Origin: Gynuella sunshinyii YC6258
GTDB taxonomy: Bacteria > Pseudomonadota > Gammaproteobacteria > Pseudomonadales > Natronospirillaceae
Reading direction: 5' to 3'
Length of the DNA: 64,000 nt
NCBI RefSeq assembly: GCF_000940805.1
Contig: NZ_CP007142.1
Location: 408,593-472,592, forward strand
Shown here: piece by piece, positions 22,536-54,590 of the stretch
How the letters are laid out: the number at the start of each line of letters is the position of its first letter
Position numbering within the stretch: the stretch's first letter is position 1
Program-made: the position numbers and the translations under genes
The notes under the pieces: generated by a model
Seen by the model: the letters and a program-made list of their open reading frames with translations, nothing else
What the model was told of the DNA's origin: nothing
The model's database searches: none

Positions 22536-25310
22536 ATGTCCAACACTCTCTATTGTCATTACCCCGATGGCCGGAAGGAAACCATCCGCCACCCTGCCAA
22601 GCCCCTTAATCAGGGCGCTGACGGCGCTATCTTTGCCAGTACTGACCGACGTTATGCGCTCAAGATCTATCACCACCCGGATAAAGATCCCCGACGTGAA
22701 CACAAACTGTGGCAGATGATCGAACACACGCCACCGGCACAGCAAGGTGTTACTTTTGCCTGGCCGCTGGCCATACTCAAAACACATCGGGGTAAATTTG
22801 TCGGCTATCTGATGCCGTTGCTGAACTTCAAACATGAGGTTCAGCTGGAACAGTTGCTTTCGGCCCGGGCTCGTCAGCAGTCCAAACTGCCGGAAAGCTA
22901 CCTGTTTCGACTGAATGCCGCCATTGAACTGGTTCGCTGTGTCGAGGCGCTCCATCGCAGTGGTCATGCCATCATCGATTTCAAACCGGTGAATGTCATG
23001 GTCAACCGTCGGACTGCCGCCATTTCAATCGTCGACTGTGATGGCTTCTTCATTCGTGGTTCACATGATCAGTTTCCCGGTCACCAGTACACCGCCGGGT
23101 ATATTGCACCGGAAGCCCATAACAACAAACTGCCGCCCGATCAACTGGATCAGGCCCAGGACCTGTTTGCTCTGGCCGTTATTGTTTTCCAACTGCTCAA
23201 TAATGGAATTCACCCGTTCCAGGGCGTTCCCAAGCCCGGAACCAAACTGCCCACGGATAACCAGGCCCGCATCAGTGCAGCGCTATATCCCTACGGTGAA
23301 CAACCGCACCCCCGGATAGGTCCATCCCCCTGGAGTCTTCATCGCCACTTTCCTGTCAACCTGCGGGGGGCATTGGAATCATCGCTGATTGGCCCCAAAA
23401 GACATTCGGCGCAGCAATGGCTGCAACTGCTGGAGACCTTGCGCGAACACATCAGTCAGTGTCAAAAAACAGCGGATCACTACTACTGGGGAGAAGAATG
23501 CCCCCATTGCCGCCAAAGCGCCGGACAAACACAACAGTTGGCAGCAACGGCCAAAGCAGCCGCCCAACGAAAACCCCGCAAGCCGACCATCAAAACCCGG
23601 CCGACCAGACACACCGCGGCTCAACCGACCCCTCCGCCAGCACCAACCGCCACGATATCTACCGGTTTTGCCTGGTTCATGATAGTCGCCGTCATACTGG
23701 TGGGTATCATTTTCTTTAACAACGATCACTCTGATGACAGCCGCTACCCAAGTCCGGATGACACCGCCGATGAGGTATTTAAAGACTCCTATTCCGAAAT
23801 GCTGATTCCCGCTTCGGATCTTAACTTTCTCATCCTTGATCCCGCTAAAACGACCACCGAGACGGTCGCTTATACGGACGATGTTGTACGCATGACCTAT
23901 GACGACGGACAACCGGACTCAATATTTTACCAGTTGCCGGAATTCAGCAGCGCCAGTGCAATACCCTACCTCAAGCGCAAGGCAATCAGCCTGAATACCA
24001 CCACCACAATGATCAGCGGCGCTTATGATATTGGTATCCGTGACTTCAACGATCACAACCGGATGCTTGGACAGAATAACAACCCGAAAAACAACATTCT
24101 CATGCTATCGGACTGGCAATATGACGAAGCCACCGCAACGTCTTACACGTATTTGTGTATCCGCCATAACGATGGCAGCGGTATTGGAGGGGCTTTGCCG
24201 ATATGCCAGCACGTGTTACAGAGCAAAACCAACGGATCAGCACGATTTGAATTTACAGAACAGCCGGACACAGATACCTCCACCGCCGCGCAGGCTGGTG
24301 GCTGGCGTTATGACCTGAGCAACAATGGTCGTTACCTGGCCATGGCCAGCAATCGAACGCTGATCGTCTACAAAACCAACAACCCCAAACAGCCACTGGT
24401 TCAGCAATTGTTGCCGGCAGATCAGCTGCAACAATCCATCAACCGCATCATCATCGATGACAGCGGTGAACAAATCTATCTGGCCCTGACAGCACCCGCC
24501 AAACCGAATGAAGCTTTTTCCGGTACCGTCCTGGAACTGCAAAAAACCGGACAGGAGTACCAGATCAGCACCGACTTCTCGACCCTGACAGACCCCAACA
24601 CCCTGTCAGGCATTGACGTTGCCATCAATGCCGATGGCACCATCATGGCCATTGGCGAATACACGGATTCGTATCTGAACACCACCGACTATACCTCTCT
24701 GGGAAGTCCTGTCGATGTCCTGGAAGGCTTTGCCAGAATCAGCCTGTGGCAACGAACCTCTGAAGGCTGGCAGCAGATCTCCACGGTCCACGAACTGAAA
24801 TCCGCGAACGTTACCATCAACGGGGAAGCGTTTTACACCGACAAACCACCCAGAGAACTGATCACCGTTCCGCAGACTATCAGTGCCTACTATTTCAGAG
24901 CATCCTGGTTTGGGGGAGGACAAGGAAGCATTCAATCCCATGCCGCCTTCAATCGTCATTTTCAGCTGAGCCGTGATGGCAAAATACTGATGTCAGGACT
25001 GACTCTAAATGGGCAGAACAACCGCCAGAACAGCACCATGACCGTCAGCACCCATCTCTACGGGATCACCGGATCTGACGTCGCGCTCGCCGCCATTGCG
25101 AAACTTGCAGTCTCCCGGCAGTACGATCAAAACTACCTGCTGGTCGATGCCCGCATGTCGAAAGACGCTGCCACGATCATTTTCAATACCACCACCAATG
25201 TCAGATCTGTCTCCCGGCAAATTCAACAAACCACGCGGTTTGATTTATTTGACTTAAATTCCCTGAGCCAACCGGAATCTGTTACCACTGACGGAGGATC
25301 AACGTATTAA
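22536..25310 (+). CDS. Ser/Thr protein kinase with a zinc-ribbon-like motif, a proline-rich linker, one TM helix and a roughly 540-aa extracytoplasmic C-terminal domain
   Basis: Kinase motifs: RYALKIY (VAIK-like), IIDFKPVNVMV (catalytic loop) and GYIAPEA (APE). Then CPHCRQ, a proline-rich PTPPPAPTA linker, the TM helix FAWFMIVAVILVGIIFF, and a long Ser/Thr/Asn-rich domain. Confidence 0.8.
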   Translation: MSNTLYCHYPDGRKETIRHPAKPLNQGADGAIFASTDRRYALKIYHHPDKDPRREHKLWQMIEHTPPAQQGVTFAWPLAILKTHRGKFVGYLMPLLNFKHEVQLEQLLSARARQQSKLPESYLFRLNAAIELVRCVEALHRSGHAIIDFKPVNVMVNRRTAAISIVDCDGFFIRGSHDQFPGHQYTAGYIAPEAHNNKLPPDQLDQAQDLFALAVIVFQLLNNGIHPFQGVPKPGTKLPTDNQARISAALYPYGEQPHPRIGPSPWSLHRHFPVNLRGALESSLIGPKRHSAQQWLQLLETLREHISQCQKTADHYYWGEECPHCRQSAGQTQQLAATAKAAAQRKPRKPTIKTRPTRHTAAQPTPPPAPTATISTGFAWFMIVAVILVGIIFFNNDHSDDSRYPSPDDTADEVFKDSYSEMLIPASDLNFLILDPAKTTTETVAYTDDVVRMTYDDGQPDSIFYQLPEFSSASAIPYLKRKAISLNTTTTMISGAYDIGIRDFNDHNRMLGQNNNPKNNILMLSDWQYDEATATSYTYLCIRHNDGSGIGGALPICQHVLQSKTNGSARFEFTEQPDTDTSTAAQAGGWRYDLSNNGRYLAMASNRTLIVYKTNNPKQPLVQQLLPADQLQQSINRIIIDDSGEQIYLALTAPAKPNEAFSGTVLELQKTGQEYQISTDFSTLTDPNTLSGIDVAINADGTIMAIGEYTDSYLNTTDYTSLGSPVDVLEGFARISLWQRTSEGWQQISTVHELKSANVTINGEAFYTDKPPRELITVPQTISAYYFRASWFGGGQGSIQSHAAFNRHFQLSRDGKILMSGLTLNGQNNRQNSTMTVSTHLYGITGSDVALAAIAKLAVSRQYDQNYLLVDARMSKDAATIIFNTTTNVRSVSRQIQQTTRFDLFDLNSLSQPESVTTDGGSTY

Positions 25311-25452: not shown

Positions 25453-26451
25453 CTATAACCGTAGTATATGGTCCTGAAAACTCATTTCCCTGCCGGTCAC
25501 ACGGGCGATAATCTGACGATTGGTCTCGCCATGATCCGACAAACCATCGCAACGAAACTCACCACCACCGGCCACCAGCATCGGCAGCATGATCTGATCC
25601 GCCAGATACTCATCCAGCACGGCATCACTTTGCAGATAACGGTTCACCTGCTTCAGCAGATTGCCGGCAACTTTTTCGGCACTGAGACGTGGTCGCCCTA
25701 ATTCGGTCAGGCAAATACGCGTCTTCTCAAAATGCAGATCAACAGCCAACAGGTTACCCGGCGAACTGCTTTTGGGTTGCCGGATCCGGGTTTCAGTGAC
25801 CGCCATCGGAGCACTGCGACAAAATACCTGTAGCTCACGTTCAGCGACCTGATTGCTCAGGCCGACTTCATAGGCACTGAGGCGACAGTTCAGCAGTTCA
25901 CCGCGCTGCAACCGGCTGATCGGTGACAGCACTGACGGTTTGATCGTTGCCTGCCAGCAACCTCCACCAGCCGGCATGAATCCCCAACGTTGAACATCCA
26001 GCTCAATCTGTGCGCCCATTTCCCGCAATAACGGCAAAAATGAACGCTTCAGATAGGTCAGGGGCGGCGCCATCGGGTTATGAGTGCCACCACGAAACTG
26101 CACCGTTGACGCGCCTTTGGCCTGCAGTAACGGCAGCGCGATGGTCTGGAATACCAGCGTGGTGCTGCCGGCACTGCCGACATCAAAATGGTAATCGCCG
26201 GATGTCACCGCGCCCGGCACGAAACGCAGTCGCGTTGACCCCAGTTCAGCCCCCTCAACCCAGGCACCACTGATAGTCTGAGCCGCCAGCACACAGGTCA
26301 GGTGCTGACGCATCAATCCCGGCTTGGGCCGGCCGCCACGAATGTGATGAATCTCAATCCCTTTGCCGGTCAGCATCGCCAGGGTCAGCGCCGAACGCAA
26401 AATCTGGCCGCCACCTTCACCCTGGCGACCATCCAGTTCAATCATGTCCAC
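25453..26451 (-). CDS. rtcA: RNA 3'-terminal phosphate cyclase
   Basis: LDGRQGEGGGQILRSALTLAML...GGRPKPGLMRQHL is closely similar to E. coli RtcA. Confidence 0.9.
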   Translation of the reverse strand: MDMIELDGRQGEGGGQILRSALTLAMLTGKGIEIHHIRGGRPKPGLMRQHLTCVLAAQTISGAWVEGAELGSTRLRFVPGAVTSGDYHFDVGSAGSTTLVFQTIALPLLQAKGASTVQFRGGTHNPMAPPLTYLKRSFLPLLREMGAQIELDVQRWGFMPAGGGCWQATIKPSVLSPISRLQRGELLNCRLSAYEVGLSNQVAERELQVFCRSAPMAVTETRIRQPKSSSPGNLLAVDLHFEKTRICLTELGRPRLSAEKVAGNLLKQVNRYLQSDAVLDEYLADQIMLPMLVAGGGEFRCDGLSDHGETNRQIIARVTGREMSFQDHILRL

Positions 26452-26458
26452 TACACAG

Positions 26459-27676
26459 TTATCCTTTTACACATACCACTTGTCTCAGGGTATGAACCAC
26501 TTCCACCAGGTCAGACTGAGCCGCCATAACCGCATCAATATTTTTATAAGCGCTGGGGGTCTCATCCACCACCGCCGCATCTTTTCGGCATTCCACATGG
26601 GCCGTCGCCAATGCATGCTCTTCAACACTCACCACTTTCTTGGCCTGGGTACGAGACATCACCCGTCCGGCTCCATGGCTACAACTGCAGAAGCTTTCCG
26701 CATTACCCTTACCCCGGACGATAAATGAGCGCGCACCCATGCTACCGGGAATAATTCCCAATTGACCTTCACGGGCGCTCACAGCACCTTTACGGGTCAA
26801 CCAGACATTTTTGTCGTAGTGGTGCTCTTTCTGCACGTAGTTATGGTGACAATTGACTGCCTCGCGCTCGACGATAACCGGTTTGTTCAGGGTAACCGCC
26901 AGCGCTTTCAAAGCCCGTCCCATCATCACCTGACGATTAATACGGGCAAAATCCTGAGCCCAGTCGACCGCTTCAACATAGTCGTTGAAATAGTCTGTTC
27001 CTTCGACCAGATACGACAAATCCCGGTCAGGCAACTGAATGAAGAAACGTTCCATTTCCTGTTTAGCCAGGCGGATAAAGTGTTCACCGATCCGGTTACC
27101 CACACCGCGGGAGCCGGAATGCAGCATGATCCAGACATCATCCTGTTCATCCAGACACACTTCAATAAAGTGATTGCCGGTACCCAACGTTCCCAGGTGT
27201 TTTACATTATTAGTGTTTTTTAATACGGGATGCTTATCGCACAACACCGTAAAACGATCAGCCAGCTGCTGTTGCCAGAATTGACCGACATCCTCCGGAA
27301 TATCATGCCAGGCACCCGGATCACGTTTTCGGGCTTTTCCTCCACCATGGGGAATGGCACGCTCCAGATTGCTACGCAGTTCTTTCAATGAGTCCGGCAA
27401 CTGATCGGCCCGGACATCGGTTTTGACGGCCATCATGCCACAGCCGATATCCACACCCACCGCTGCGGGAATGATGGCACCGGTGGTTGGAATCACCGAG
27501 CCGATAGTCGCTCCCTTACCAAAATGCACATCCGGCATTGCGGCCACCCATTTATGGATGAACGGTAGCGAGGCGAGGTTTTTCAATTGTTGCCGGGCTC
27601 CGTCCTCAAAAGGTACGCCGACGGTCCAGCTTTTTACCGGAACCCCTTTTTCCACGTTGATCACTTCAATGGCCAT
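26459..27676 (-). CDS. rtcB: RtcB RNA ligase (3'-phosphate/5'-OH RNA-splicing ligase)
   Basis: Length 405 aa. Metal-binding and GMP-histidine region motifs MLHSGSRGVGN and NCHHNY are present. Lies immediately upstream of rtcA. Confidence 0.9.
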   Translation of the reverse strand: MAIEVINVEKGVPVKSWTVGVPFEDGARQQLKNLASLPFIHKWVAAMPDVHFGKGATIGSVIPTTGAIIPAAVGVDIGCGMMAVKTDVRADQLPDSLKELRSNLERAIPHGGGKARKRDPGAWHDIPEDVGQFWQQQLADRFTVLCDKHPVLKNTNNVKHLGTLGTGNHFIEVCLDEQDDVWIMLHSGSRGVGNRIGEHFIRLAKQEMERFFIQLPDRDLSYLVEGTDYFNDYVEAVDWAQDFARINRQVMMGRALKALAVTLNKPVIVEREAVNCHHNYVQKEHHYDKNVWLTRKGAVSAREGQLGIIPGSMGARSFIVRGKGNAESFCSCSHGAGRVMSRTQAKKVVSVEEHALATAHVECRKDAAVVDETPSAYKNIDAVMAAQSDLVEVVHTLRQVVCVKG

Positions 27677-28015
27677 GATTTACTCCTTTTATTAAACCTG
27701 AAACTGTCATTCCGATACGGGTGACAGATTATCTAAACCGACACATTCAACGATGTAACAGGGTATTAACAAGAACAATGCCAAGAACCAAAATAAATAT
27801 AACTATTTGATAAATAAGACATTTTTATTTTTAACTCAATCACGATCAGCCAAAATTTATCGATATCGATCAACTATGATCATTTTCGAGTGGCAACAAG
27901 CCCAATGACATCACGCCCAAAGCCGTGATTACCTGCCCAAAGACTTTGTTTCGCCACAACCACCCCCACATTAAGGGACGACCCAGGCGTATCCTCTATC
28001 CAAGGAAACAACGTA

Positions 28016-28471
28016 ATGCATGAAACCCGCACAAATATTCAGCCCTTCTCAGACAGTCAGTGGCGCACTCTCAGCCTGAGCCCGGTGATTATATTTTTAC
28101 TGGTCGCCGCCGCCGACGGACATATCGATAACCGGGAAAAGCAGCAGTTTGTGGAATTACTGAAAGAGACAGAGAAGCGCCGTTCAGACAGATTGAAAAC
28201 ACTGCTTCAGGACGTGGCCCGGCAACTGACCGATTTATTGATGGTCGTGGCCAGCGAAACATTGGATATGATTGACGTGATAACGGAAACCGTCGATCTG
28301 GTGGAACAGCATCTTGAGCCCGAAGAAGCCCTGCTCTTCAAGCAGGACCTGCTCGACTTTGCCACTGAAATTGCCCGCAGCTCAGGCGGCCTGACCAGCG
28401 GCACAATTGATCGTCACGAGCAGCAGACGCTGGACCAAATCAGTCACTATCTGCGGCTCAATCTGTCCTGA
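28016..28471 (+). CDS. TerB-like (tellurite-resistance TerB / DjlA N-terminal-like) domain protein
   Basis: Helical protein of 151 aa with the VAAADGHIDNREKQQFVELL motif that resembles the TerB family. Assignment made by eye only. Confidence 0.4.
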   Translation: MHETRTNIQPFSDSQWRTLSLSPVIIFLLVAAADGHIDNREKQQFVELLKETEKRRSDRLKTLLQDVARQLTDLLMVVASETLDMIDVITETVDLVEQHLEPEEALLFKQDLLDFATEIARSSGGLTSGTIDRHEQQTLDQISHYLRLNLS

Positions 28472-28497: not shown

Positions 28498-29139
28498 TCA
28501 GTCGCGCAATCCCCATTCGGTTTCGACATCCTCCAGATCGCCCACATACGACAAGTCCACGCATTCCAGACTGAACATGTAGCGCACGTCTTCGATCAAC
28601 TCGCGGGCATCCAGATCCAACAAATGCCCCATCACCATGCCATTGAGCTCATAGTAGCGGGGATACGGTTTACGCATGTACTGGCGAAACATCTCCAGCA
28701 CTTCGCTTCTATGAGAAGGAAATGCCATGGCTATTTCCGCCAGCGAGTTCATCGAAATCGCATAAGCAAACTGATCCTCACCCTCCCGTTGCAGATACTC
28801 AGACAAAGGATTGATGGCTGCCGGTCCGATCAATGCCATTACCTTGTCCAGTTCAGTGATGGCAAAATCATCGCCACTGAAGCGGTCAAAGTTGTTGATC
28901 AGACTGTCTATCGCAGTCTCGGCCCGAAGTTGTCCCAGGGTCCGCCAGGCATGTACCGGTGCCCAGGTGGCAGGATCTTTGGGCTCAAGAGTATCGAAAT
29001 GTTCATCGCATACGACTGCGATCAGATCGGCAATATCAGACTCATCAAACCCATACTGCTCGGGGTATTGGGGCCATGGTGTTGAAATATGAGCTTCTCC
29101 CAGCTCGATCAGAGCCTGGATTTTTGGATTAGAGTGCAT
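28498..29139 (-). CDS. Conserved hypothetical acidic helical protein (possibly DUF1186-like)
   Basis: Clean ORF of 213 aa. No motif I can assign confidently. Confidence 0.45.
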   Translation of the reverse strand: MHSNPKIQALIELGEAHISTPWPQYPEQYGFDESDIADLIAVVCDEHFDTLEPKDPATWAPVHAWRTLGQLRAETAIDSLINNFDRFSGDDFAITELDKVMALIGPAAINPLSEYLQREGEDQFAYAISMNSLAEIAMAFPSHRSEVLEMFRQYMRKPYPRYYELNGMVMGHLLDLDARELIEDVRYMFSLECVDLSYVGDLEDVETEWGLRD

Positions 29140-29219: not shown

Positions 29220-30806
29220 TCACTGCACCCGTTCAAACTTTAGATCAAACTTGGCCAGATACTGTCGCAATCGATGCGAGTCATTGGCAGAACTTTTCTT
29301 TAATCGCGAACGATTGAACAGTTTACGACCCGCCTGAGAAATATTCTGACTGTCCCGACACACCGCCACCACATGACGGAGTTGCTGCTGGTCGAACAGA
29401 TCCATATCAGCCAGTTGTTCCGGCTCCAGGATTTCTTCCAGTGCCGGTAACGAGTCATTCACCTCTGCCGGTTTCCACCAGGTCAGCAAGCGCTCACACT
29501 CCTGTTGAACCAGAGCTTCATTGATACGTCCGCCATCCGAGAGGATACTCATACGCTGAATACAGGCATTGAGATCACGAAAATTACCTGACCACAAAGC
29601 CTCAGGACTGGTGGCAAAATCGAGAAATCGCTGCCGCGCGGTCTTGTTGAAACTGACTTTGTAACCCATCTGGCTTTCCGCCTGCTGCAACTCATAATCA
29701 AGATTGGGTTCAATATCTTCACGTCGATGCCGCAAACCGGGCAATTCGTAACTCCAGAGATTGATTCGCGCCAGCAGATCCTCCCGAAAACGGCCTTCCG
29801 CCACCTGCTGTTGAAGATCCCGATTGGTGCCGGCAATCAGCTGAAAATCGCTGCTGACGGGACCATCCGCACCCACCGGATAAAACGTCTTTTCTTCAAT
29901 GGCATGCAGCAACATGGCCTGTTCATCCAATCCCAGTTCACCAATTTCATCCAGAAACAACAAACCCTGATCAGCTTTGTTCAACAAACCTTTGCGGGCA
30001 TTCTGAGCGCCGGTGAACGCTCCTTTCTTATGACCAAACAATGCCGACATGGCACTGTCACCGCGCAAAGTGGCACAGTTCACCGCCACCAGCTCCCCCT
30101 GGATCGAGCCACGCATTTTTTTGAGCTCATAAATCCGGCTGGCCAGCTGTGATTTGCCCGCACCGGTCGGCCCGGTAATCAATATCGGCGCCACCGAACG
30201 GATTGCTACCTGCTCAATCTGCTGAATCATGGCATTGAACTGGCGATTGCGGGTGGCAATGCCAGATTTCAGAAACTCAGTGCCTTCCAGTTGCCGACGC
30301 TTGAAACGGGAACTGATGGCATCGTATTTGGAGAGATCCAGATCGATGAGATGGCACTGACCTGACACTCCATTATCGCCACGCCCAGGCGAGGTTTGCA
30401 GCAACACGGCCGGAACATAGTTGGCTTCGCACAACAGAAACCAGCAGATCTGCGCCACATGGGTACCGGTGGTGATGTGCAGCAGGTAGCGCTCCTGATC
30501 CGGCTTGAACGGATAATGCTCCACGAAGTCCAGCAGGGTGCTATAGACCTGCTCAAAATCCCATGGATTCTCAAACCGCAGCTCATGCAGCTGCACTTCG
30601 GTGTCGGGCGAGACCGTCTGCACGTCCGCGCCGACATTATTGGCCAGCCGATGGTCACGCGCATCGTGAATCAGCTCCAGACGATCCACCAGCAGATCCT
30701 CCTGCATGAAGATACCGACCGTCGGCCGCCATTTATTCCAGCGCTTGACCCCTTTACCGCGGGCATCCAGTACGGTGCCCAGCAAACCAATCACAACCGT
30801 TTTCAT
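29220..30806 (-). CDS. rtcR: RtcR, sigma54-dependent transcriptional activator with an N-terminal CARF-like sensor domain
   Basis: N-terminus MKTVVIGLLGTVLDARGKGVKRWNKWRPT parallels E. coli RtcR. AAA+ sigma54-interaction domain (GPTGAGKS, GAFTGA) and a C-terminal HTH. Start placed at the Met aligned to the E. coli RtcR start. Confidence 0.85.
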   Translation of the reverse strand: MKTVVIGLLGTVLDARGKGVKRWNKWRPTVGIFMQEDLLVDRLELIHDARDHRLANNVGADVQTVSPDTEVQLHELRFENPWDFEQVYSTLLDFVEHYPFKPDQERYLLHITTGTHVAQICWFLLCEANYVPAVLLQTSPGRGDNGVSGQCHLIDLDLSKYDAISSRFKRRQLEGTEFLKSGIATRNRQFNAMIQQIEQVAIRSVAPILITGPTGAGKSQLASRIYELKKMRGSIQGELVAVNCATLRGDSAMSALFGHKKGAFTGAQNARKGLLNKADQGLLFLDEIGELGLDEQAMLLHAIEEKTFYPVGADGPVSSDFQLIAGTNRDLQQQVAEGRFREDLLARINLWSYELPGLRHRREDIEPNLDYELQQAESQMGYKVSFNKTARQRFLDFATSPEALWSGNFRDLNACIQRMSILSDGGRINEALVQQECERLLTWWKPAEVNDSLPALEEILEPEQLADMDLFDQQQLRHVVAVCRDSQNISQAGRKLFNRSRLKKSSANDSHRLRQYLAKFDLKFERVQ

Positions 30807-30951
30807 ATGATCTATTTCGATAAATGACGATAAATTTCGATCAGTATTCCTAAAGACCGGGTCGGGGTCAATGCTGTACATTTATGCAAGAAATATAAAA
30901 AATATTTTAAAAACAATGAGTTATAAATTTTTTTAATACATCAGAACAAGC

Positions 30952-30967
30952 TGGCACAGAGCTTGGA
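30952..30967 (+). promoter_or_regulatory. Candidate sigma54 (-24/-12) promoter TGGCAC-agagc-TTGGA, reading toward the tRNA-like RNA and SPFH/NTase genes
   Basis: Perfect -24 TGGCAC with correct spacing. The -12 element is TTGG rather than the consensus TTGC. Divergent from rtcR, matching the position where RtcR-activated promoters lie in enterobacteria. Confidence 0.35.
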
Positions 30968-31076
30968 ATAACAATATTGAATGTGATCACTGGCAGCGGC
31001 GCGGGTTCTGTACACCCGCCTGGCATCCCTCTCCATGAGACCGGATGTACCGACAGTATCGGACAGTACATTCACA

Positions 31077-31152
31077 CGTTTGATAGCTCATACGGTAGAG
31101 CAGTTGACTCATAATCAATGGGTAACGGGTTCGAATCCCGTTCAAACATCCA
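31077..31152 (+). ncRNA. tRNA-like RNA with a CAT (Met-type) anticodon. It has a 76-nt canonical cloverleaf with an encoded CCA, a C1·A72 mismatch and an AU-rich acceptor stem.
   Basis: Manual fold: acceptor 31077-83/31142-48 (6 of 7 pairs); D-stem GCTC/GAGC; anticodon stem GTTGA/TCAAT with loop CTCATAA; T-stem ACGGG/CCCGT with T-loop TTCGAAT. The anticodon and T arm closely resemble elongator tRNA-Met. Confidence 0.55.
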
Positions 31153-31418
31153 TGGTAAAGCCCTTCCAGGCTCAGGGTTCAAATCCCTCTTTAAATATAA
31201 ACGGGCGCAAGCCCAAAGCGGTGTGCCGCGTTTATCAGACCCGTTGTCGATAAACCCGGGCATACCCGGACCCGGGAGCTGAAATGCCAGGGGCGCTGGC
31301 TGACGCCGGTGGGGGCCAGGGATGGTCGTAGATTCAGGTGTAATCCCCACCGGCCTCAGACAGTCAACCGGCATTCCCTCCCGGCATCTGATCAATATGG
31401 ATCAAAAAAGGAGTCGTT

Positions 31419-32582
31419 ATGAAATTGTGGACCTCCATCAGCGTGGCTGATGATGAAAGAGTTTTATTGTACCGGGACCGTCAGCTGGTCCGGGTACTGC
31501 ACAGCGGTCGCTATCGCATGTTTGATCCCGGCCGGCGCTACAGCACAGAAACCCTGTCGCTGCGCGAAGCCGGCGTCAAACATGGCAACCTTGAAGTACT
31601 GCTGACCCTGGAGATTTTCCGCGCCGAGGTGGACGTTGAAACCATCGGCCAGGAAGAAGTCGGCATCGTGCGTCTGGATGGACAGGTGAAAGCGGTATTG
31701 GAACCGGGATCGCGCTTTGTCCGCTGGCGCAGCAGTGAGAATCTGACGCTGGAATGCATCGACATTTCCAATAACTACCGCATCGCTCCGGCGTTGCTGG
31801 CGCAATTGGAACGCTCGGGTGTGAACGGCATCGGCAGCCATAAGGCCTGGATGCAGTTGACCGTGCCGGATCAGACACTGGGTCAGCTGTTTGTGGATGG
31901 TCGTCTGGCCGAGACCCTGCCGAGCGGCCGCTATGGTTTCTGGTTGTACAACCGGGAACTCAACACCCAGGTCAGTGACCTGAAGTGGCAATCGGTGGAA
32001 ATCAGCGGTCAGGAAATTCTGACCAGGGACCGGGTCAGCCTGCGGTTGAACCTGAACGCGGTTTACCGCTTCAGCGATGTGGTGAAGTTGCTGTCTCAGG
32101 TGAAAAGCCCTGGTGATTATATCTACCGGCGTTTGCAGCTGGCACTGCGGGAAACGGTCGGTACCCGCACTCTGGATGAGTTGCTGGCGGATAAAAACGC
32201 CATCGCCAAAACCATCACCAAATCGGTCAGCGAGCACTTGCAGGAGATGGGATTCGAACTCGAACAGATTGGTATAAAGGACATCATTCTGCCCGGTGAT
32301 ATGAAAGATATTCTGAATCAGGTGGTGCAGGCTCAGAAAACCGCCGAGGCCAACCTGATCCGCCGGCGGGAAGAGACTGCCGCAACCCGTTCGCTGCAAA
32401 ACACCGCCAGAATGATCGAGGGTAACCCGGTGCTGTTACGCCTGAAGGAACTGGAGGCACTGGAAAAAGTGGCGGATCGGATCGGTCATCTGACCGTATA
32501 CGGAGGGCTCGAAGGGGTCATGAATGGACTGGTATCTCTGACCGGGGCGGTGAAATCCTCCAACGGTCAAACAACCTCATAA
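31419..32582 (+). CDS. SPFH/band-7 (stomatin/HflK-like) domain protein with a roughly 200-aa N-terminal extension and no TM anchor
   Basis: Band-7 core DRVSLRLNLNAVYRFSD...ITKSVSEHLQEMGFELEQIGIKDIILPGDMKDILNQVVQAQKTAEANLIRRREETAATRS followed by a coiled-coil tail. No hydrophobic helix is present. Confidence 0.75.
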   Translation: MKLWTSISVADDERVLLYRDRQLVRVLHSGRYRMFDPGRRYSTETLSLREAGVKHGNLEVLLTLEIFRAEVDVETIGQEEVGIVRLDGQVKAVLEPGSRFVRWRSSENLTLECIDISNNYRIAPALLAQLERSGVNGIGSHKAWMQLTVPDQTLGQLFVDGRLAETLPSGRYGFWLYNRELNTQVSDLKWQSVEISGQEILTRDRVSLRLNLNAVYRFSDVVKLLSQVKSPGDYIYRRLQLALRETVGTRTLDELLADKNAIAKTITKSVSEHLQEMGFELEQIGIKDIILPGDMKDILNQVVQAQKTAEANLIRRREETAATRSLQNTARMIEGNPVLLRLKELEALEKVADRIGHLTVYGGLEGVMNGLVSLTGAVKSSNGQTTS

Positions 32583-32595
32583 CGGGAGACAGACA

Positions 32596-33363
32596 ATGGA
32601 ACAGAGAATCCTTGCAACGTTGGAGCGGATCGAATGGGAATACGGCGTGGATATCCTCTACGCCTGCGAATCCGGCAGTCGCGCCTGGGGCTTTGTCTCA
32701 CCGAACAGCGACTACGATGTCCGCTTCATCTATGTGCATCCACTGGATCACTATTTATCGGTGGGCAGGCAGCGGGATGTGATTGAAGAACCGATTATCG
32801 ATGATCTCGACATCAACGGCTGGGATCTGCGCAAGGCCCTCGGGCTGATGCGCGGCAGTAATCCCAGTCTGCTGGAGTGGCTGCATTCGCCGGTGGTGTA
32901 CCACAGTCGTGAGTGGTTTGAATACGAGCTGCGGGAACTGGCATTGCAAAGCCTGGATCGCCGGGCGTTGTTTCACCACTATCGCTCAATGGCCGGCAAT
33001 GACTGGCGAAAAGTACGCAAAGCCGACCGGGAAGTTCCCCTGAAGCGCTACTTTTACATGCTGCGCACCGCGCTGTGCGCGCTTTGGGTGATGGACCCTG
33101 ACAAACCGGCGATGCCACCGGTGGCATTCGCAGAACTACTGGCGCAAACAGACATGGATGCGGTCGTTCGGGCGACGATCGGGGAGCTGCAAACACTCAA
33201 GGCCAGTCTGGCCGAGAAATGCTCGATCCCCCGAGTCGTGGTGCTGGACGACTTTCTCGCCGATGCGTTTGCCCGTATGGATGCGGCCAGTCCGGAGAAA
33301 AGAGCGCCGATGCCACTGGCACCATTCGATCAACTGCTGATCAACACCGTAAGGGCGGCCTGA
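32596..33363 (+). CDS. Pol-beta-superfamily nucleotidyltransferase (the RNA-repair-associated NTase family)
   Basis: ESGSRAWGFVSPNSDYDVRFIY matches the hG[GS]...[DE]h[DE]h NTase signature. Length 255 aa. Lies 13 nt downstream of the SPFH gene. Confidence 0.65.
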   Translation: MEQRILATLERIEWEYGVDILYACESGSRAWGFVSPNSDYDVRFIYVHPLDHYLSVGRQRDVIEEPIIDDLDINGWDLRKALGLMRGSNPSLLEWLHSPVVYHSREWFEYELRELALQSLDRRALFHHYRSMAGNDWRKVRKADREVPLKRYFYMLRTALCALWVMDPDKPAMPPVAFAELLAQTDMDAVVRATIGELQTLKASLAEKCSIPRVVVLDDFLADAFARMDAASPEKRAPMPLAPFDQLLINTVRAA

Positions 33364-47719: not shown

Positions 47720-50209
47720 ATGAATTCAAAAACCCTAAAAGCCATTCTTGCGGCCGGATTTTTGCTTGCCGCAAATGGCATGACAGCAACCACCGCATAT
47801 GCAGCTTCTGACATGACTGATACCTCAGAAAAACAGACTCTTTCCAACGCAGACAGTCCAACCGGTATCTGGCAATGCCCGGATTCCGGTTTGTACTTCT
47901 GTGACGATTTCGCCACCGGCAGCACCAATAACTGGAACCTGCTGCCGCAGACCGAAAACAGCATGATACCCGATGGCAGTTTTGACCTCGTTAATGATGC
48001 AGACAACTATGTCCTGCGCTATACCGCCGATAAATCCGGTGGCGTTATTGCGCTGGTTAAACCATCAGCTTTATCCATGCTGACAACGGCAGACTATTAC
48101 GTTGAGGCGAAAATCAGACCGCGTTACAACTCGACAGCTGCCAACAAGCAACTTTATTTGCTTGGTCGCTATCAGGACGGTAACAACTGGTATGCCGGAG
48201 CGATGAACATTCAAAATTCCGTCGGCAGCACCCAGGTGGAAATTGCCAAAATGGTCAACGGCGAACTGACGCGTATGCAGCGAGTCAAAACACCGATTGA
48301 ACAGGGTGCAAAAGATGCCCTGGACGGACAATGGTACTACCTGCGTCTGGTACTGAAAGGTGACACCCTGACGGTTTATCTCGATGGCGATCAGATTGCC
48401 TCCACTACCGACACGAGTTTCACAGATACCGGCATCATCGGTCTCTGGACATCCAATAAATCATTCGAAATCGATGATGTCCGAGTCGGTAATGCCGACG
48501 ACCTTCCTGCATCTATCGTGTTGTCTCCCAGAGATACGGAATACAGCGCTGAAGTTGGAGATACGCCCAAGGTCGTTGAAGTCAGTACCCGTACAGAGAC
48601 CGGAGAAAATGATACCTTTACCGTCACCTCAAGCGATTCGAATGTGATTGCCATCAGCACGGCAGGTAATCAGGTTACCCTGACACCCGTGGGATCAGGC
48701 ACCGCCACGGTCACATTTATCAGCGGCTCAAATCTGGTTCGAAAAATCAGCGCCACCATTGCACCACAATTTGAAATGCCAACCGCAGTCTATAATTTCT
48801 GCAATGAACTCACACCCGCCTCAGGCGAATTCAATACCTATGAAGATACCCAGCTCAAAATCAGATTTGATTCTGAGGTAACACTGGGAGAGGGATCCAT
48901 TCGCATTTTCAGAACCAGCGATGATGTCATGGTGGACAAAATCAGTCTGATCAATGAATCAGACAACATAGGCTACAACCCGGTACGTACCATTAAAACC
49001 AATCAGGTCAGAATCGATGGCAACATTGTCCGTATCACCCCACACGCCAATACTCTGGAGCACGGTGTCAACTACTATATCGCCATAGCTAAAGAAGCAT
49101 TCACCGGTGCAACATTGGCAGGACAAGTATTTGAGGGCATTGGAAAAAACAGTGGCTGGACCTTTACCACCAGAATCAACGGACCAGATACCAACAAGAC
49201 CACGCTGGTGGTTAACGATAATGGTCATCATGCTGACTTCCGGTCAGTACAAGGCGCACTCAACTTTATCATGCAGAACGTGGCAGCAGATACACCTGCT
49301 ACGGTGTATATCAAAAATGGCATATATGAAGAACCGCTGTACCTTTACGGCAAAAATAACATTACCTTGAAAGGTGAAAACCGGCGTAGAACCATCATTC
49401 GTTACACCATCAATGAGAGCATGAACTCGGGTACCGCAGGACGACCATTATTCCTGATAGAACAGGCAGATATGGTCAGACTGGACAACCTGACACTGAA
49501 AAACACCACACTGATCGGGGAAGGGCACCAGGCTGAAACGCTATTCTTTAACAGCCCGGACGGTCGACTGATTGCCACCAACGCAGACTTTTTCAGCGAA
49601 CAGGACACTCTGAACCTTAAGGGCTGGACCTGGTTCTATAACACATTGGTTGCCGGAAATGTTGATTTTATCTGGGGCTACAGCAAAGTCTCCTTGTTCG
49701 AAAACAGCGAAATCCGCACGTTGGGAGATTCACGGGGTAATGGCAGCGGCGGATACGTCCTTCAGGCCCGGGTGGAAAATGAAACCGACAAAGGCTTTGT
49801 CTTCCTCAACTCAAAAATCACTCGCGGTAACGGTCCGAACGGCGACCCGGTCCTGGACAATACTACCTACCTGGCCCGAAGCGGCGGTTGCAGTGGCTGT
49901 TACGACAATATCGTGTTCGTCAATACTTACATGGACGCCCATATCAAACCCGTCGGCTGGCTAAACGATCCATTACCCACACCACAAATAGCCAATGAAA
50001 ATGCGGGTTGGCGGGAATACAACACAATGGATCTTAACGGCCAGGAACAAGACCTTTCAGAAAGACTCGAAACCTTATCTTACGAAATGAACGAAGAGGA
50101 AGTTCTGAATGGCTACAGCACGAGAGAACAGATATTTTCCGCCTATAACAACGGCGAAGGATGGGAGCCAATGAAAGACATATACAATCATTGGCCGAGG
50201 TTTAAATAA
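47720..50209 (+). CDS. Secreted multidomain carbohydrate esterase family 8 (pectin methylesterase-like) protein with N-terminal lectin/Ig-like (Big_2) domains
   Basis: Signal peptide MNSKTLKAILAAGFLLAANGMTATTAYA. Big_2-like segment. C-terminal CE8 motifs FFSEQDTL and GNVDFIWG. Confidence 0.7.
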   Translation: MNSKTLKAILAAGFLLAANGMTATTAYAASDMTDTSEKQTLSNADSPTGIWQCPDSGLYFCDDFATGSTNNWNLLPQTENSMIPDGSFDLVNDADNYVLRYTADKSGGVIALVKPSALSMLTTADYYVEAKIRPRYNSTAANKQLYLLGRYQDGNNWYAGAMNIQNSVGSTQVEIAKMVNGELTRMQRVKTPIEQGAKDALDGQWYYLRLVLKGDTLTVYLDGDQIASTTDTSFTDTGIIGLWTSNKSFEIDDVRVGNADDLPASIVLSPRDTEYSAEVGDTPKVVEVSTRTETGENDTFTVTSSDSNVIAISTAGNQVTLTPVGSGTATVTFISGSNLVRKISATIAPQFEMPTAVYNFCNELTPASGEFNTYEDTQLKIRFDSEVTLGEGSIRIFRTSDDVMVDKISLINESDNIGYNPVRTIKTNQVRIDGNIVRITPHANTLEHGVNYYIAIAKEAFTGATLAGQVFEGIGKNSGWTFTTRINGPDTNKTTLVVNDNGHHADFRSVQGALNFIMQNVAADTPATVYIKNGIYEEPLYLYGKNNITLKGENRRRTIIRYTINESMNSGTAGRPLFLIEQADMVRLDNLTLKNTTLIGEGHQAETLFFNSPDGRLIATNADFFSEQDTLNLKGWTWFYNTLVAGNVDFIWGYSKVSLFENSEIRTLGDSRGNGSGGYVLQARVENETDKGFVFLNSKITRGNGPNGDPVLDNTTYLARSGGCSGCYDNIVFVNTYMDAHIKPVGWLNDPLPTPQIANENAGWREYNTMDLNGQEQDLSERLETLSYEMNEEEVLNGYSTREQIFSAYNNGEGWEPMKDIYNHWPRFK

Positions 50210-50318
50210 ATAGATTAAGGGATTAAGCGTGTTTGATGCAGGGATGCATCGCTTTGAAGCATTCAATAGTATGACAGTCCGAAGGCGTCATATATGTCCT
50301 TTTTATATCTCCCTCTGG

Positions 50319-50651
50319 TTAGAAATTCAAAAACTTTAATGCAGCCAAAGCGATACAAATCACTATCGATGCAGCACTTAATCTATTCAGTATATTTAGA
50401 CTTTTTGCAATAGACTTCACTTTTTCATCTTCAAACTTTAAATAAGGCTTTACATTGAAGTATCTAATACGATTAAGGTGTAACCTAAAGGCATTATCAT
50501 CATACAGTCCAAATTCTATCAATTGGCTATCATCCAGCTTTTCAATAGCCAAAAAGAACTCGCGTTGCAATGAGTTATATTTATTGACAAGAAAAATCGA
50601 TATTACTAAAAACATTAAGAAAAATATGCTTATCATACCTATCACCGTCAA
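50319..50651 (-). CDS. Small membrane protein (two TM helices) in the AT-rich island
   Basis: 110-aa ORF with low-GC codon usage. Confidence 0.4.
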   Translation of the reverse strand: MTVIGMISIFFLMFLVISIFLVNKYNSLQREFFLAIEKLDDSQLIEFGLYDDNAFRLHLNRIRYFNVKPYLKFEDEKVKSIAKSLNILNRLSAASIVICIALAALKFLNF

Positions 50652-50654
50652 AAC

Positions 50655-51110
50655 TTCTGATCAAAGCCAACCGCAAGCATAGTCCCACTGCTACCAAATA
50701 CTAATCCAACACCGCCTTTGAAATTCGCGCCGCCAGAGCCAAGAGTACCACTAACTTTTGTACCAAAGATTCCTCTAGCAGGAGCGGTCCACGAAAATTT
50801 ATCGGTAATGTTTAGATCTGACGGACCTCTCTCTCCGATTGGAAAGTTATAATCAACTGTTAACGATAAGCTGCGCCTTTGATTAACCCCGATCCAGCAA
50901 AGAACTTTGCATCACCAGCCCCATTAATAGAAAAATCAACCCTATAACCAGCATTGTTTTTTCTAAGAGCTAAGGAGCCTGTAAAGGAATAACGATCGAG
51001 CTCGTCAAGAGAATCTACAAACCTAAATAGATCCTCTCTCACGCCTCCATCTAGCATTCGATTCCAGAAAAAGCCTGCAAATGAGTCTTCAGATACCTGA
51101 GGCAAACTAG
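50655..51110 (-). pseudogene. Disrupted outer-membrane beta-barrel (OmpA/OmpW-like porin family) gene, frameshifted
   Basis: Two frames give ...FAGSGLIKGAAYR and ...GTLGSGGANFKGGVGLVFGSSGTMLAVGFDQKF*, which is Gly-rich with a C-terminal Phe typical of OMPs. No intact start or signal peptide. Confidence 0.5.
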
Positions 51111-51141
51111 GCCAGCTCCACCTGCTCTTTTGTACATTAAA

Positions 51142-51195
51142 GATTCAAGTTTACGGGTGTATTTTTTATTTTCATTCTTTTTATTTTCAAATTTA
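51142..51195. repeat. Island repeat copy 1 (degenerate): GATTCAAGTTTACGGGTGTATTTTTTATTTTCATTCTTTTTATTTTC
   Basis: One of five copies of the GAATTCAAGTTTATGGATGTCCTTTTTAT... family. Confidence 0.6.
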
Positions 51196-51312
51196 TGAAT
51201 TCAAATAATGGGTGCCCTTTTTATTTCTTATAGCACAAGATTGGCCAAGTTATTTACAGAGATATGGGTTCTAACCGTTGGTAATGGTTTAAGATCTCCT
51301 TAAGTAGCCACA

Positions 51313-51360
51313 ATTCAAGTTTTTGGGTGTTATTTTTGTTTTCCATTCTCATCACCCAAA
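51313..51360. repeat. Island repeat copy 2 (degenerate)
   Basis: AATTCAAGTTTTTGGGTGTTATTTTTGTTTTCCATTCTC. Confidence 0.55.
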
Positions 51361-51484
51361 GATATCCACGACTTGCATCTTTTTATAGCTGCTAACAGGG
51401 TAGCTATCCAATATGAACTTCTCTAAATCATTCGACAGTCTCTGAAAATATGGTGTAGCACTTGTGCTGGTACCATCATGGATT

Positions 51485-51510
51485 AACAAGTTTATGGATG
51501 TCCTATTTAT
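51485..51510. repeat. Island repeat copy 3 (core only), 11 nt beyond the 3' end of lipoprotein gene 51521..51928
   Basis: AACAAGTTTATGGATGTCCTATTTAT. Confidence 0.6.
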
Positions 51511-51520
51511 TCACCAATCC

Positions 51521-51928
51521 CTATTCCTTAACAAAACATAAATGTAACTCTGTTTGAAAACAAAGATGTATATTTGGCTCCTTGTTCTTTGACGTTTTTA
51601 CGGCCAAAGTAAACCAATCACCACGAGAGCTTGATATGCCTTTCATAGCCCTAAACTTAAAATTGTAAAAAACAACATCAATTTCAATCACAGAGTCAGA
51701 TGGCGTTTCAACAAACTTCCAAGCGCCTTTTTCTTCTTTAACTTCATTTTCTTCTCGAAATTTGTGTATATATGTACCATCGGCATTTATTTCCAACTTG
51801 TCGGTATCATCCGCGTAATGGGCCAAATAGCTACCATACAATTCTTCAGCATTAAAATACTCTCGTTTAGATCCACATCCTGTGCAAATGGCCATGATCA
51901 AAACAAAAAGGGAAAGGTGAAATTTCAT
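51521..51928 (-). CDS. Lipoprotein (candidate immunity-type protein)
   Basis: Lipobox MKFHLSLFVLIMAICTGCGS. 135 aa. Abuts the upstream 225-aa ORF with no gap. Confidence 0.55.
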   Translation of the reverse strand: MKFHLSLFVLIMAICTGCGSKREYFNAEELYGSYLAHYADDTDKLEINADGTYIHKFREENEVKEEKGAWKFVETPSDSVIEIDVVFYNFKFRAMKGISSSRGDWFTLAVKTSKNKEPNIHLCFQTELHLCFVKE

Positions 51929-52606
51929 TTAATACTGCTCAGTTATAAAATAAGTTTGCGATACTGTTGACATTGGCGACATAGTGTAACCAGTTCTATC
52001 ATACGAAATTTCACCAAATATTCTTCCGGTTAGCGAAGATAAGCTGGTGTTATTGTCTAGCGCATACATTAACGTGCGATTTGGCCCTCCAACAATATCC
52101 GTTACCGTGAAGCTCCCGACATATGCCCCCGTAGGGCTTTGCCAAGCGATTTTGAATCCTTCGGCAATTGATATCGTCTTCCCAAAGTTGGTTGCATGAA
52201 TTCCACTCCAGTCATTAGATGCAGATAACTGCGAGCCATATGTTTTGAAAAATAAGTCTCTGACGCGTTGAAACTCCGGGGTTAAGCTTAGATTGTGAGA
52301 TTGAATAGAGTCTGGACCAAACACCAGTTCGGAAGGACCAACTCCGAGAAAAAATCCCGCGACAATCATTCCAGCGGTCGCGACTTCACCAACTTGATCT
52401 CCAATCCCAAAGCTCTTTTGTGCATTATCCACCACCACTACGATAGTCCCCTGTTCTGCCAACTCTTCCTGAGCACGTATATACATATATCCATTGGGCA
52501 CCACACTGGTAGTTCCATAAGGCGAATAGTACTGATTTTGCACTCCCAGCGCTGCATCGGCGCACTGGATGTCATTTTTATCTTTTTTTATTTTCTTTTG
52601 AAACAA
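51929..52606 (-). CDS. Hypothetical 225-aa protein without a signal peptide (candidate effector/toxin-like partner of the downstream lipoprotein)
   Basis: Clean ORF with low-GC usage and no recognisable domain. Confidence 0.4.
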   Translation of the reverse strand: MFQKKIKKDKNDIQCADAALGVQNQYYSPYGTTSVVPNGYMYIRAQEELAEQGTIVVVVDNAQKSFGIGDQVGEVATAGMIVAGFFLGVGPSELVFGPDSIQSHNLSLTPEFQRVRDLFFKTYGSQLSASNDWSGIHATNFGKTISIAEGFKIAWQSPTGAYVGSFTVTDIVGGPNRTLMYALDNNTSLSSLTGRIFGEISYDRTGYTMSPMSTVSQTYFITEQY

Positions 52607-52625
52607 GTATCCAACTACTAAATCT

Positions 52626-52874
52626 CTATAGGCATTCTTTTTGTTTTTTTAATTTTGAATATACAATACTAAATATTACGCTTTCGAACACAACATATAC
52701 ACAAGCTATAGCGGATCCTCCCCTTAAATCAGCACCTCCCACCAAACCAAGACAGAAAACCTGAAGAAGAAAAATAACCGACTCTTTTTTCACATCACCC
52801 AATGAAAATATCTTAATAAACCGAAAGCATGTACCGCCAAAAACTATTACTACCACAATTATTGTTTCCGTCAT
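52626..52874 (-). CDS. Small membrane protein (82 aa)
   Basis: Two TM helices. Overlaps the upstream small ORF by 4 nt. Confidence 0.35.
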   Translation of the reverse strand: MTETIIVVVIVFGGTCFRFIKIFSLGDVKKESVIFLLQVFCLGLVGGADLRGGSAIACVYVVFESVIFSIVYSKLKKQKECL

Positions 52875-53051
52875 AACCCTACACCCAGCATCGCGTTAGT
52901 TACAATAGTATTTGCAGACGCACCTAGTTGAAATAGGTCATATCCAACTATAATATTACCCTGAGTTAATATTGAGATTTTTGTAACCTCAGACCCTAAA
53001 GTCAGAGGTTTTTTTACTAGCGATATTAATTGCACCAGATATCTTTTCTGG

Positions 53052-53108
53052 GAATTCAAGTTTATGGATGTCCTTTTTATTTTTCTATTCTCTCTTTTTA
53101 TTCTTCTC
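53052..53108. repeat. Island repeat copy 4 (full length), 14 nt beyond the 3' end of lipoprotein gene 53122..53547
   Basis: GAATTCAAGTTTATGGATGTCCTTTTTATTTTTCTATTCTCTCTTTTTATTCTTC. Confidence 0.65.
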
Positions 53109-53121
53109 TATTTCGAATCGC

Positions 53122-53547
53122 CTAGCTTTCTATCTTATATTTCTTATGTAACTGAGAGATATTCCGTGGATCGATTTCGATAAGGACATCTTTAGTATCA
53201 AACCAAAGACTTAGGTATCTATCTTTAGATTGATTAAAATTTAATGGATTATTTTGCTGATATATATACAACAATCTTCTTCCCACGACGCTATTGTCTT
53301 CTTTTCTCGTCATAATAGTGTCATATGATGGTTCACCCAACATAGCTATAACAACAGCATATGAATCACCTATTTCTAATTTTTGGATTTTTTCGATATC
53401 TAACGGTAAGTTCTGTCTTTCTTCAATATTCAAATCACTATGCTTGGTATCATTACCATCTTTATTACATGCAGTAAAACCAAATAAGGTTATTGATATT
53501 GCTATACAAGTATTAATTACAATATTTAAACGCATATTCCTTAACAT
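53122..53547 (-). CDS. Lipoprotein (candidate immunity-type protein)
   Basis: Lipobox ISITLFGFTACNKDG. 141 aa. Confidence 0.55.
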   Translation of the reverse strand: MLRNMRLNIVINTCIAISITLFGFTACNKDGNDTKHSDLNIEERQNLPLDIEKIQKLEIGDSYAVVIAMLGEPSYDTIMTRKEDNSVVGRRLLYIYQQNNPLNFNQSKDRYLSLWFDTKDVLIEIDPRNISQLHKKYKIES

Positions 53548-53579
53548 CTTGTGGGCTCCAGATAAAATGATATTTTGAG

Positions 53580-53917
53580 GGCTTTCCTCCTACATGAAGA
53601 GCACCATACGCAGTAGTTGAACAATTAGAGTCGATAGTGGACCAGTTTTTATCTTATTTCCATTTATCCCACCACGATTTTATTTTTTCAGTATCTGGGT
53701 TAGTGACCAATATTTCATGATCAGGTATTTTTTGCCCTTCCAATCTTACGTCATCCTCAAAACTTTGATTGGCCATTTCTTCTGCTTCAAAGACTTGGCC
53801 TCCATAAGATCCGAATACTTTATATTTTTCTATAGGCCTTTGCTCAGGGCCAGGGCAGAAACTAATATGAGTTCCATTATTGTTTCCCTTGAGATTTTTG
53901 CTATTTTAATTTACTAA
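53580..53917 (-). pseudogene. Start-less C-terminal ORF fragment (...GTHISFCPGPEQRPIEKYKVFGSYGGQVFEAEEMANQSFEDDVRLEGQKIPDHEILVTNPDTEKIKSWWDKWK*) immediately upstream of the lipoprotein gene
   Basis: Open frame of about 100 codons with no plausible start other than an internal Met. Resembles an orphan C-terminal module. Confidence 0.35.
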
Positions 53918-54561: not shown

Positions 54562-54590
54562 GAATTCAAGTTTATGGATGTCCTTTTTAT
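54562..54590. repeat. Island repeat copy 5 (core)
   Basis: GAATTCAAGTTTATGGATGTCCTTTTTAT. Confidence 0.65.

Follow-up and report, generated by a model that had tools for sequence, protein, structure and literature searches.

The intergenic region at positions 31153-31418 of the stretch of Gynuella sunshinyii YC6258 DNA analysed here (64,000 nucleotides, hereafter the window) probably represents the downstream two-thirds of a modular RNA of about 400 nt (approximately 30979-31390), to judge from its sequence and from analogy with other RNA-repair operons. This RNA would be transcribed from an RtcR-dependent sigma-54 promoter together with the genes for an SPFH/Band-7 protein and RlaP, and may act as the non-coding partner of a Band-7 repair module, a reading that is favoured here with moderate confidence. 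[quoted passage not shown] New with respect to Rfam 15 and the literature found are the 5' domain, the reduced second module together with the evolutionary series to which it belongs, and the covarying 3' domain; part of this anatomy may already be described in the 2016 paper on the b7a-tRNA. This provides helices to mutate, a covariance model for seeding an Rfam family, and predictions on processing and protein binding, and it makes the comparison with Ro60/Y RNA directly testable.

Genomic context and promoter

As judged from its sequence, the locus is an RNA-repair unit of the RtcR/sigma-54 type, in which rtcR is followed divergently by a promoter, a tRNA-like RNA, the region 31153-31418, the SPFH/Band-7 gene, and the RlaP gene. 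The genes and the promoter are the following:

25453-26451 (-): rtcA (Pfam).
26459-27676 (-): rtcB (Pfam).
29220-30881 (-): rtcR, oriented away from the RNA and encoding a sigma-54 activator with RtcR/CARF domain (Pfam RtcR, 1.2e-82; Sigma54_activat, 4.9e-50).
30952-30966 (+): sigma-54-type promoter TGGCAC-N5-TTGG, the sole perfect match to TGGCACNNNNNTTGS (TGGCAC-N5-TTGS) in the 64-kb window.
31419-32582 (+): SPFH/Band-7 ('slipin') gene (Pfam Band_7, 2.3e-27; translation; homologues).
32596-33363 (+): RlaP nucleotidyltransferase gene (Pfam RlaP, 5.8e-80).

The promoter is situated in the spacer from which rtcR and SPFH diverge and was kept in loci L081, L082, and L087. Transcription is predicted to start at approximately position 30978, and sequence conservation among the relatives sets in at GAATGTG, position 30979. 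The SPFH protein is 93% identical to its best homologue, and its N-terminus, read by eye, displays no obvious hydrophobic segment. The rtcB-rtcA pair has a sigma-54-like promoter of its own (TGGCAT-N5-TTGT; 27769-27783, minus strand) and is set apart from rtcR, indicating that the RtcR regulon consists here of two transcription units. Between rtcB-rtcA and rtcR, a TerB-like gene (28016-28471, plus strand) and a DUF1186-like gene (28498-29139, minus strand) were found, while a 924-amino-acid ORF adjoining rtcA (22536-25310, plus strand) has a weak match to a protein-kinase domain.

The 5' domain and the first tRNA-like module

The first part of the predicted RNA consists of two modules:

30979-31076 (+): 5' domain, closed by GAAUGU/ACAUUC and containing an internal GCGGGU/ACCCGC hairpin (RNAalifold of the whole RNA).
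31077-31152 (+): tRNA-like module 1, the b7a-tRNA (ARAGORN, tRNA-Met with anticodon CAU; Rfam tRNA model, 62 bits).

Matches to the 5' domain were found with nhmmer in the distant loci L064, L066, L051, L032, L025, and L007, including modules internal to operons. Both its 5'-end GAAUGU and the inner GGAUGUAC are able to pair with GUACAUUC just before the tRNA, and these competing pairings suggest alternative folds; as all three segments are invariant, covariation cannot choose between them.

Module 1 is the only tRNA called in the window by ARAGORN and by the Rfam tRNA model. It carries a CAU anticodon, a 7-bp acceptor stem, a C1-A72 mismatch, and an encoded CCA end, and it is nearly invariant among the relatives except for its anticodon, which reads CAT, GAG, TTT, or AAG; the CCA end is not conserved. 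In distant loci, the anticodon loop (31110-31116 in the window) is variable or malformed according to ARAGORN. The variation of the anticodon among near-identical relatives and the unconserved CCA end indicate that the RNA is not a decoding tRNA.

A 'band 7-associated tRNA' beside Band-7 and RtcB genes was predicted in 2016 and was unvalidated when last discussed (bioRxiv 10.1101/312249). The homologue of Pseudomonas aeruginosa, PA4581.1, is annotated as tRNA-Arg4; it has no CCA, and qRT-PCR detects it (PMC13637947). The module of the window belongs to this family, since it is a cloverleaf directly upstream of an SPFH gene on the same strand, an arrangement found in nearly all of 90 related loci, and since it has a neighbourhood of RNA-repair genes (RtcB, RtcA, RtcR, and RlaP), as retrieved by Pfam in the window and by tblastn maps of the 90 loci.

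A reduced second tRNA-like module

The first sequence-only reading of this DNA had noticed a T-arm-like element (CAGGGTTCAAATCCCTC, 31173-31189) 20 nt past the end of the tRNA and had remarked that it leaves no room for a full tRNA. The element was confirmed as a hairpin at 31174-31188, and the remark holds too, as 37 nt are available and the call by ARAGORN and Rfam is restricted to 31077-31152. The T-loop consensus GGTTCRANTCC occurs twice in the 64 kb (31128 and 31176), against 0.27 occurrences expected. The element forms part of the following feature:

31153-31189 (+): reduced second tRNA-like module, in which UGGUAAAG (31153-60), resembling a D-loop, is followed by the small hairpin GCC-CUUCCA-GGC (31160-71) and by the T-arm AGGG-UUCAAAU-CCCU (31174-88).

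This module was compared across 80 distant and 10 closer SPFH loci, all obtained through SPFH homologues. Two T-loop consensus motifs at most 90 nt apart, just upstream of the SPFH gene, were present in 69 of 91 loci from many lineages, and a D-loop-like GG(N)A motif preceded the second T-arm in 65 of these 69. The loci differ in the spacing of the two T-loops. With a spacing of 68-83 nt (37 loci), the second element takes the form of a cloverleaf or comes close to one, and a tetraloop often replaces the anticodon loop; for Pseudomonas and other loci, ARAGORN reports two tRNA-like genes that abut each other, the second module being a full cloverleaf. With a spacing of 62-65 nt (13 loci), an extra hairpin is followed by GGUAAAG, a small hairpin, and the T-arm. 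With a spacing of 41-55 nt (19 loci, including the window with 48 nt), just (U)GGUAAAG, the small hairpin, and the T-arm are found. The helix of the second T-arm was 100% paired in an alignment of 20 sequences, with GC, AU, and CG variants. Comparison of these loci shows that the second T-arm belongs to a predicted reduced tRNA-like module and that the family forms a series, with a complete second cloverleaf at one end and the minimal form of the window at the other.

The elbow of a tRNA is built by G18/G19 of the D-loop together with the T-loop. As the minimal form retains the D-loop GG(U)A and the T-loop, the elbow-forming parts may have been kept, and it appears that the second module preserves mainly the tRNA elbow. 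The close relatives L082, L085, and L087 have lost the second T-loop consensus and retained a hairpin with a 7-nt loop, indicating that the elbow is not strictly required.

Covarying hairpins between the second module and the start codon

Downstream of the second T-arm, the following elements were delineated:

31203-31214 (+): tetraloop hairpin GGGC-GCAA-GCCC (helix 90.6% paired in the 20-sequence alignment).
31215-31225 (+): motif AAAGCGGUGUG, apparently unpaired, kept in Hahellaceae relatives, Permianibacter, Marinobacter, and Oleiphilus.
31230-31255 (+): stem GUUUAUC/GAUAAAC with a 12-nt loop (helix 3; seven pairs, five of them compensatory, 100% paired).
31272-31384 (+): long composite hairpin of approximately 115 nt (helices 4-7; 41 pairs, 20 of them compensatory).
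31385-31418 (+): A-rich linker with Shine-Dalgarno sequence AAGGAG (31408-13), followed by the SPFH ATG at 31419 (read from the sequence).

The region 31153-31418 as a whole folds with -113.7 kcal/mol, compared with -92.1 ± 4.9 for 200 dinucleotide shuffles (z = -4.4), none of which folded as well. The sequence-only reading had described it as unusually GC-rich for an intergenic region and full of near-perfect hairpins. Its GC content (56.8%) does exceed that of the window (49.4%) and of the promoter-proximal spacer (40%), but it equals that of the flanking genes (56.7%) and is not extreme. Among the hairpins named, GGGC-GCAA-GCCC is present and conserved in the relatives: its stem is the same in six close relatives despite replacement of the GCAA loop by UUCG or UCCG, and the stem reads GGAGC/GCUCC and GGGGC/GCCCC in L088 and L089. 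The 9-bp stem CCGGTGGGG/CCCCACCGG (31306-14/31345-53) is likewise present and forms part of the conserved, covarying long hairpin. Two other hairpins exist in the window but are hardly shared: GCGG-TGTG-CCGC (31218-29) occurs only there and in L081, a 93% relative, whereas others keep the sequence GCGGURUG alone, and CCGGG-CATA-CCCGG (31256-69) is not kept as such, the relatives displaying CAGG-CAUACAAAA-CCUG instead, in competition with the base of the long hairpin. The conserved unpaired motif, also written as GCGGUGUG, lies between the tetraloop hairpin and the 7-bp stem. The apex of the long hairpin is a three-way junction with hairpins A (GGCC-AGGGAU-GGUC, 31314-27) and B (GAUU-CAGGUGU-AAUC, 31331-45). 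These apical hairpins (31314-31345) bear AGG-rich loops, AGGGAU and CAGGUGU, and similar loops were seen in Pseudomonas, Competibacter, and Pokkaliibacter loci.

Covariation across orthologous loci had been proposed as a check of these stems, and the downstream stems proved to be conserved and covarying. RNAalifold on the window and five relatives yielded 56 pairs, 27 of them with compensatory changes. In this six-sequence structure, 93.7% of the cells were paired, against 32-48% when the partners were slid, and none of 500 shuffles did as well; double-sided changes occurred at 27 pairs, against 2-7 with slid partners. A model of the segment 31151-31270 (R2) gave 40 matches with E<=1 in the 795 kb of loci and the window, all of them on the plus strand and directly upstream of an SPFH gene. 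The alignment of the 20 matches with E<0.01, which is fitted to the model, was 91.5% paired with compensatory changes at 19 of 23 pairs, compared with 30-50% paired and 3-8 compensatory pairs in slid controls. A model of the long hairpin built on six sequences (R1) found Pokkaliibacter (E = 4e-6 to 6e-5), to which its matches outside the training set were limited in the sampled loci, and similarity to the downstream profile in nhmmer faded past the close relatives. Separate RNAalifold predictions gave compensatory changes at 20 of 53 pairs in Pseudomonas and 21 of 66 pairs in Burkholderiales, both with a layout of T-arm, small hairpin, long composite hairpin, and A-rich linker with Shine-Dalgarno sequence; the proposed homology of the 3' domain across these clades rests on this common layout and not on a scored alignment. 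Past the second T-arm, the leaders of the 90 loci have a median z of -4.0, 90% of them being below -2.

Folding of the whole RNA (30979-31393) with its relatives by RNAalifold returned locally closed modules in the order 5' domain, cloverleaf, second module, small hairpin, stem, and long hairpin. A protein-coding reading of the region was considered and rejected. ORFs 31035-31253 (plus strand) and 31072-31395 (minus strand) overlap the tRNA, the small ORFs called in the relatives differ in strand and frame, and the alignment contains 1-nt indels and paired compensatory changes.

Proposed function of the RNA

The sequence-only reading had offered three interpretations, namely a composite non-coding RNA consisting of a tRNA-like domain plus extra stems, an integration-derived duplicate of the 3' half of a tRNA, and a processing or attenuator structure. 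The first is best supported, given the conserved and covarying stems and the assignment of the second T-arm to a reduced module. The pairing of Y RNA with Ro60 in rsr-yrlBA-rtcBA operons suggests, by analogy, that the RNA may be the non-coding partner of a soluble Band-7 protein in Rtc repair. It would probably be excised from the operon transcript, with RNase P cutting at the 5' end of module 1 and an endonuclease in or past the long hairpin. Once released, it would present one or two tRNA elbows, by which tRNA-directed nucleases or repair enzymes (RtcB and RlaP) may be decoyed or offered a docking platform, while the long hairpin may be a protein-binding or stabilising domain.

The position of the module in other operons bears on this proposal. 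According to the tblastn maps, it always lies directly 5' of the SPFH gene, either first after the promoter or between rtcA and SPFH. In 11 loci it is operon-internal, rtcR being followed divergently by rtcB, sometimes rtcA, and then the RNA and SPFH, and several of these operon-internal loci (e.g., L064, L066, L051, L032, L025, and L007) have kept the 5' domain. Furthermore, the distance between the end of the long hairpin and the SPFH ATG ranges from 31 to about 250 nt among the relatives. The operon-internal position, the retained 5' domain, and the variable distance to the Shine-Dalgarno sequence argue for a modular RNA and not a promoter leader.

Alternative explanations

The main rival, which is less probable than the non-coding partner and has to be taken seriously, is that the region acts purely in cis, as a leader or intercistronic element of the SPFH mRNA. 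Its stems would shield the 5' end of the mRNA after removal of the tRNA-like part, offer a site for RNase III, or bind a translational regulator. The module being always immediately 5' of SPFH would be expected of such an element; as the loci were sampled through SPFH homologues only, this constant position fits a cis-acting leader equally well. A metagenome scan independent of SPFH, with the pattern GGATGTACCG...TAGCTCA...GGNAGAGC, returned 12 matches, none of them with an SPFH or Rtc neighbour; the seven that were inspected resembled ordinary tRNA genes. Also consistent with a leader are the lack of a terminator between the RNA and SPFH and the coaxial helices 4 and 5, which make up a near-continuous duplex of about 32 bp. 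That the Shine-Dalgarno sequence follows the structure at anything from 31 to about 250 nt, however, speaks against direct occlusion of the ribosome-binding site, and a mere stabiliser would need neither two mimics of a tRNA elbow nor a conserved 5' domain.

A translational regulator that may be considered for such a leader is CsrA/RsmA, the SELEX consensus of which is RUACARGGAUGU (quoted in PMC4347634). The apical loop CAGGGAUG resembles this site: it agrees with the core CARGGAUG and has its GGA in the loop. A second GGA occurs in the Shine-Dalgarno sequence. These features recall the GGA hairpins of CsrB, RsmY, and RsmZ and leaders bound by CsrA. In 20 loci (Pseudomonas, Competibacter, relatives of Gynuella/Hahella, and Pokkaliibacter), but not in the Acidovorax clade, hairpins with a CA(R)GGA(Y)G loop precede the ATG by approximately 100-330 nt. 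The bare motif, however, is not clearly enriched in the leaders (21 sense versus 15 antisense occurrences); a looser search for AGG(G)A-loop hairpins retrieved 37 loci, compared with 21.8 on average and at most 31 for shuffled sequences. Unlike CsrB, RsmY, and RsmZ, the RNA has one or two such hairpins, without significant enrichment of a motif that is absent from the Burkholderiales loci, and these have to be regarded as putative sites only. Deletion of rtcB in P. aeruginosa has been reported to alter RsmA levels (PMC8619066).

That the region functions as a transcription attenuator or partial terminator, ending a short non-coding RNA and gating read-through into SPFH, is improbable. Locus L085, a relative of Hahella ganghwensis, does contain UUACUUUUUU after the long hairpin (approximately 2955-2975), which could be a terminator, and L082, L084, and L090 have weaker U-rich tracts past this hairpin. 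An alternative pairing at 31256-31278, in which CCGGG/CCCGG or CAGG/CCUG competes with the base of the long hairpin, is available in the window and its close relatives. However, 31153-31418 has no terminator-like site on the plus strand, a U-run past the hairpin is missing in the window, L081, and the Pseudomonas clade, and intrinsic terminators do not usually take the form of a branched hairpin of about 115 nt. The third interpretation of the sequence-only reading is left in part only: an attenuator of the terminator type is unsupported, as no stem plus U-run occurs on the plus strand between the tRNA and the start codon, whereas a role in processing or stability is possible.

An attL/attR-type duplicated 3' half, left by integration into a tRNA gene, would account for a second T-loop near a tRNA-like gene but can be dismissed with near certainty, since the 64-kb window contains no further copy of the tRNA 3' part at up to three mismatches (the direct repeat that was to be looked for) and no direct-repeat family involving the region, the two arms have only the T-loop consensus in common, the Pfam scan revealed no adjacent integrase, and the arrangement with its covarying stems is kept in 69 of 91 loci of many lineages.

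Comparison with known systems

The closest known element is the b7a-tRNA, with which the RNA shares a tRNA-like gene directly upstream of Band-7/SPFH amid RtcR, RtcB, RtcA, and RlaP genes, 31077-31152 being a member of this family. The unit found here differs in its length of about 400 nt, with a 5' domain, a full or reduced second module, and a covarying 3' hairpin domain.

A second point of comparison is YrlA and the other bacterial Y RNAs, which are encoded in rsr-yrlBA-rtcBA operons (PMC4201824; bioRxiv 10.1101/312249). Both are operon-embedded non-coding RNAs with a tRNA-like (T-arm/D-arm) domain plus extra helices, associated with RtcB-type repair genes under RtcR control, and both adjoin the gene for a protein proposed as repair cofactor. 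Here, in contrast, the partner gene encodes an SPFH protein, the acceptor stem is a real one of 7 bp, and there is a second module. The likeness to Y RNAs that the sequence-only reading had drawn therefore stands as an analogy, through the tRNA-like domain and its T-arm/D-arm mimicry, but failed when tested for Y RNA features proper. Rfam scans at gathering and permissive thresholds returned no family besides tRNA, and cmscan of 30850-31450 gave no match to Y RNA/YrlA at E<=10, the output being limited to tRNA and chance matches. Similarly, no Ro60/Rsr (TROVE) gene was present among the ORFs scanned between 22.5 and 41 kb, and RNAalifold of the whole RNA revealed no Y RNA-type stem joining its 5' and 3' ends.

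Thirdly, tRNAs and tRNA-like processing signals occur in co-transcripts with mRNA or long RNA, as in thrU-tyrU-glyT-thrT-tufB of Escherichia coli and in MALAT1/mascRNA. As in these cases, the embedded tRNA shape could recruit cleavage of the RNase P/RNase Z type, parting two functional RNAs; it differs from them in that neither the anticodon nor the CCA of the tRNA-like part is conserved and that conserved non-tRNA domains accompany this part.

Lastly, the vault particle comprises MVP, the shoulder domain of which is SPFH-like, TEP1, which contains a TROVE domain, and vault RNA. An oligomeric SPFH-fold protein together with a small structured RNA recalls this particle, an analogy that is no more than a lead. 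On a speculative note, the RNA of about 400 nt and a soluble SPFH oligomer might form a vault- or Ro-like ribonucleoprotein that baits anticodon nucleases or holds the broken ends of tRNA or 16S rRNA for RtcB and RlaP. The 5' domain, one or two tRNA-elbow mimics with a free-running anticodon loop, and the branched hairpin with its Shine-Dalgarno- or CsrA-like loops would be part of it, and the rapidly changing anticodon would reflect an arms race with such nucleases.

Other observations

Arrays of up to 19-20 ordinary-looking tRNA genes were found on the same strand just upstream of the mimic and SPFH in L001 (673-2830), L061 (402-2746), and L024 (2064-2793), and such arrays occur in L010, L038, L044, L060, and L075 as well. 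The array of L024 is located between rtcA and the mimic, so that it appears to lie inside the repair operon. These arrays recall the stress-induced tRNA operon of Anabaena, which is co-regulated with rtcB and a slipin gene (PMC10272220). Elsewhere in the window, a 34-nt repeat of the form GGAATTCAAGTTTATGGATGTCCTTTTTATTTTT occurs six times in an AT-rich block (50000-55000; 34-41% GC), and positions 1-7000 contain long direct repeats with a spacing of 3331-3334 nt and 72-86% identity, which suggest tandem paralogous genes.
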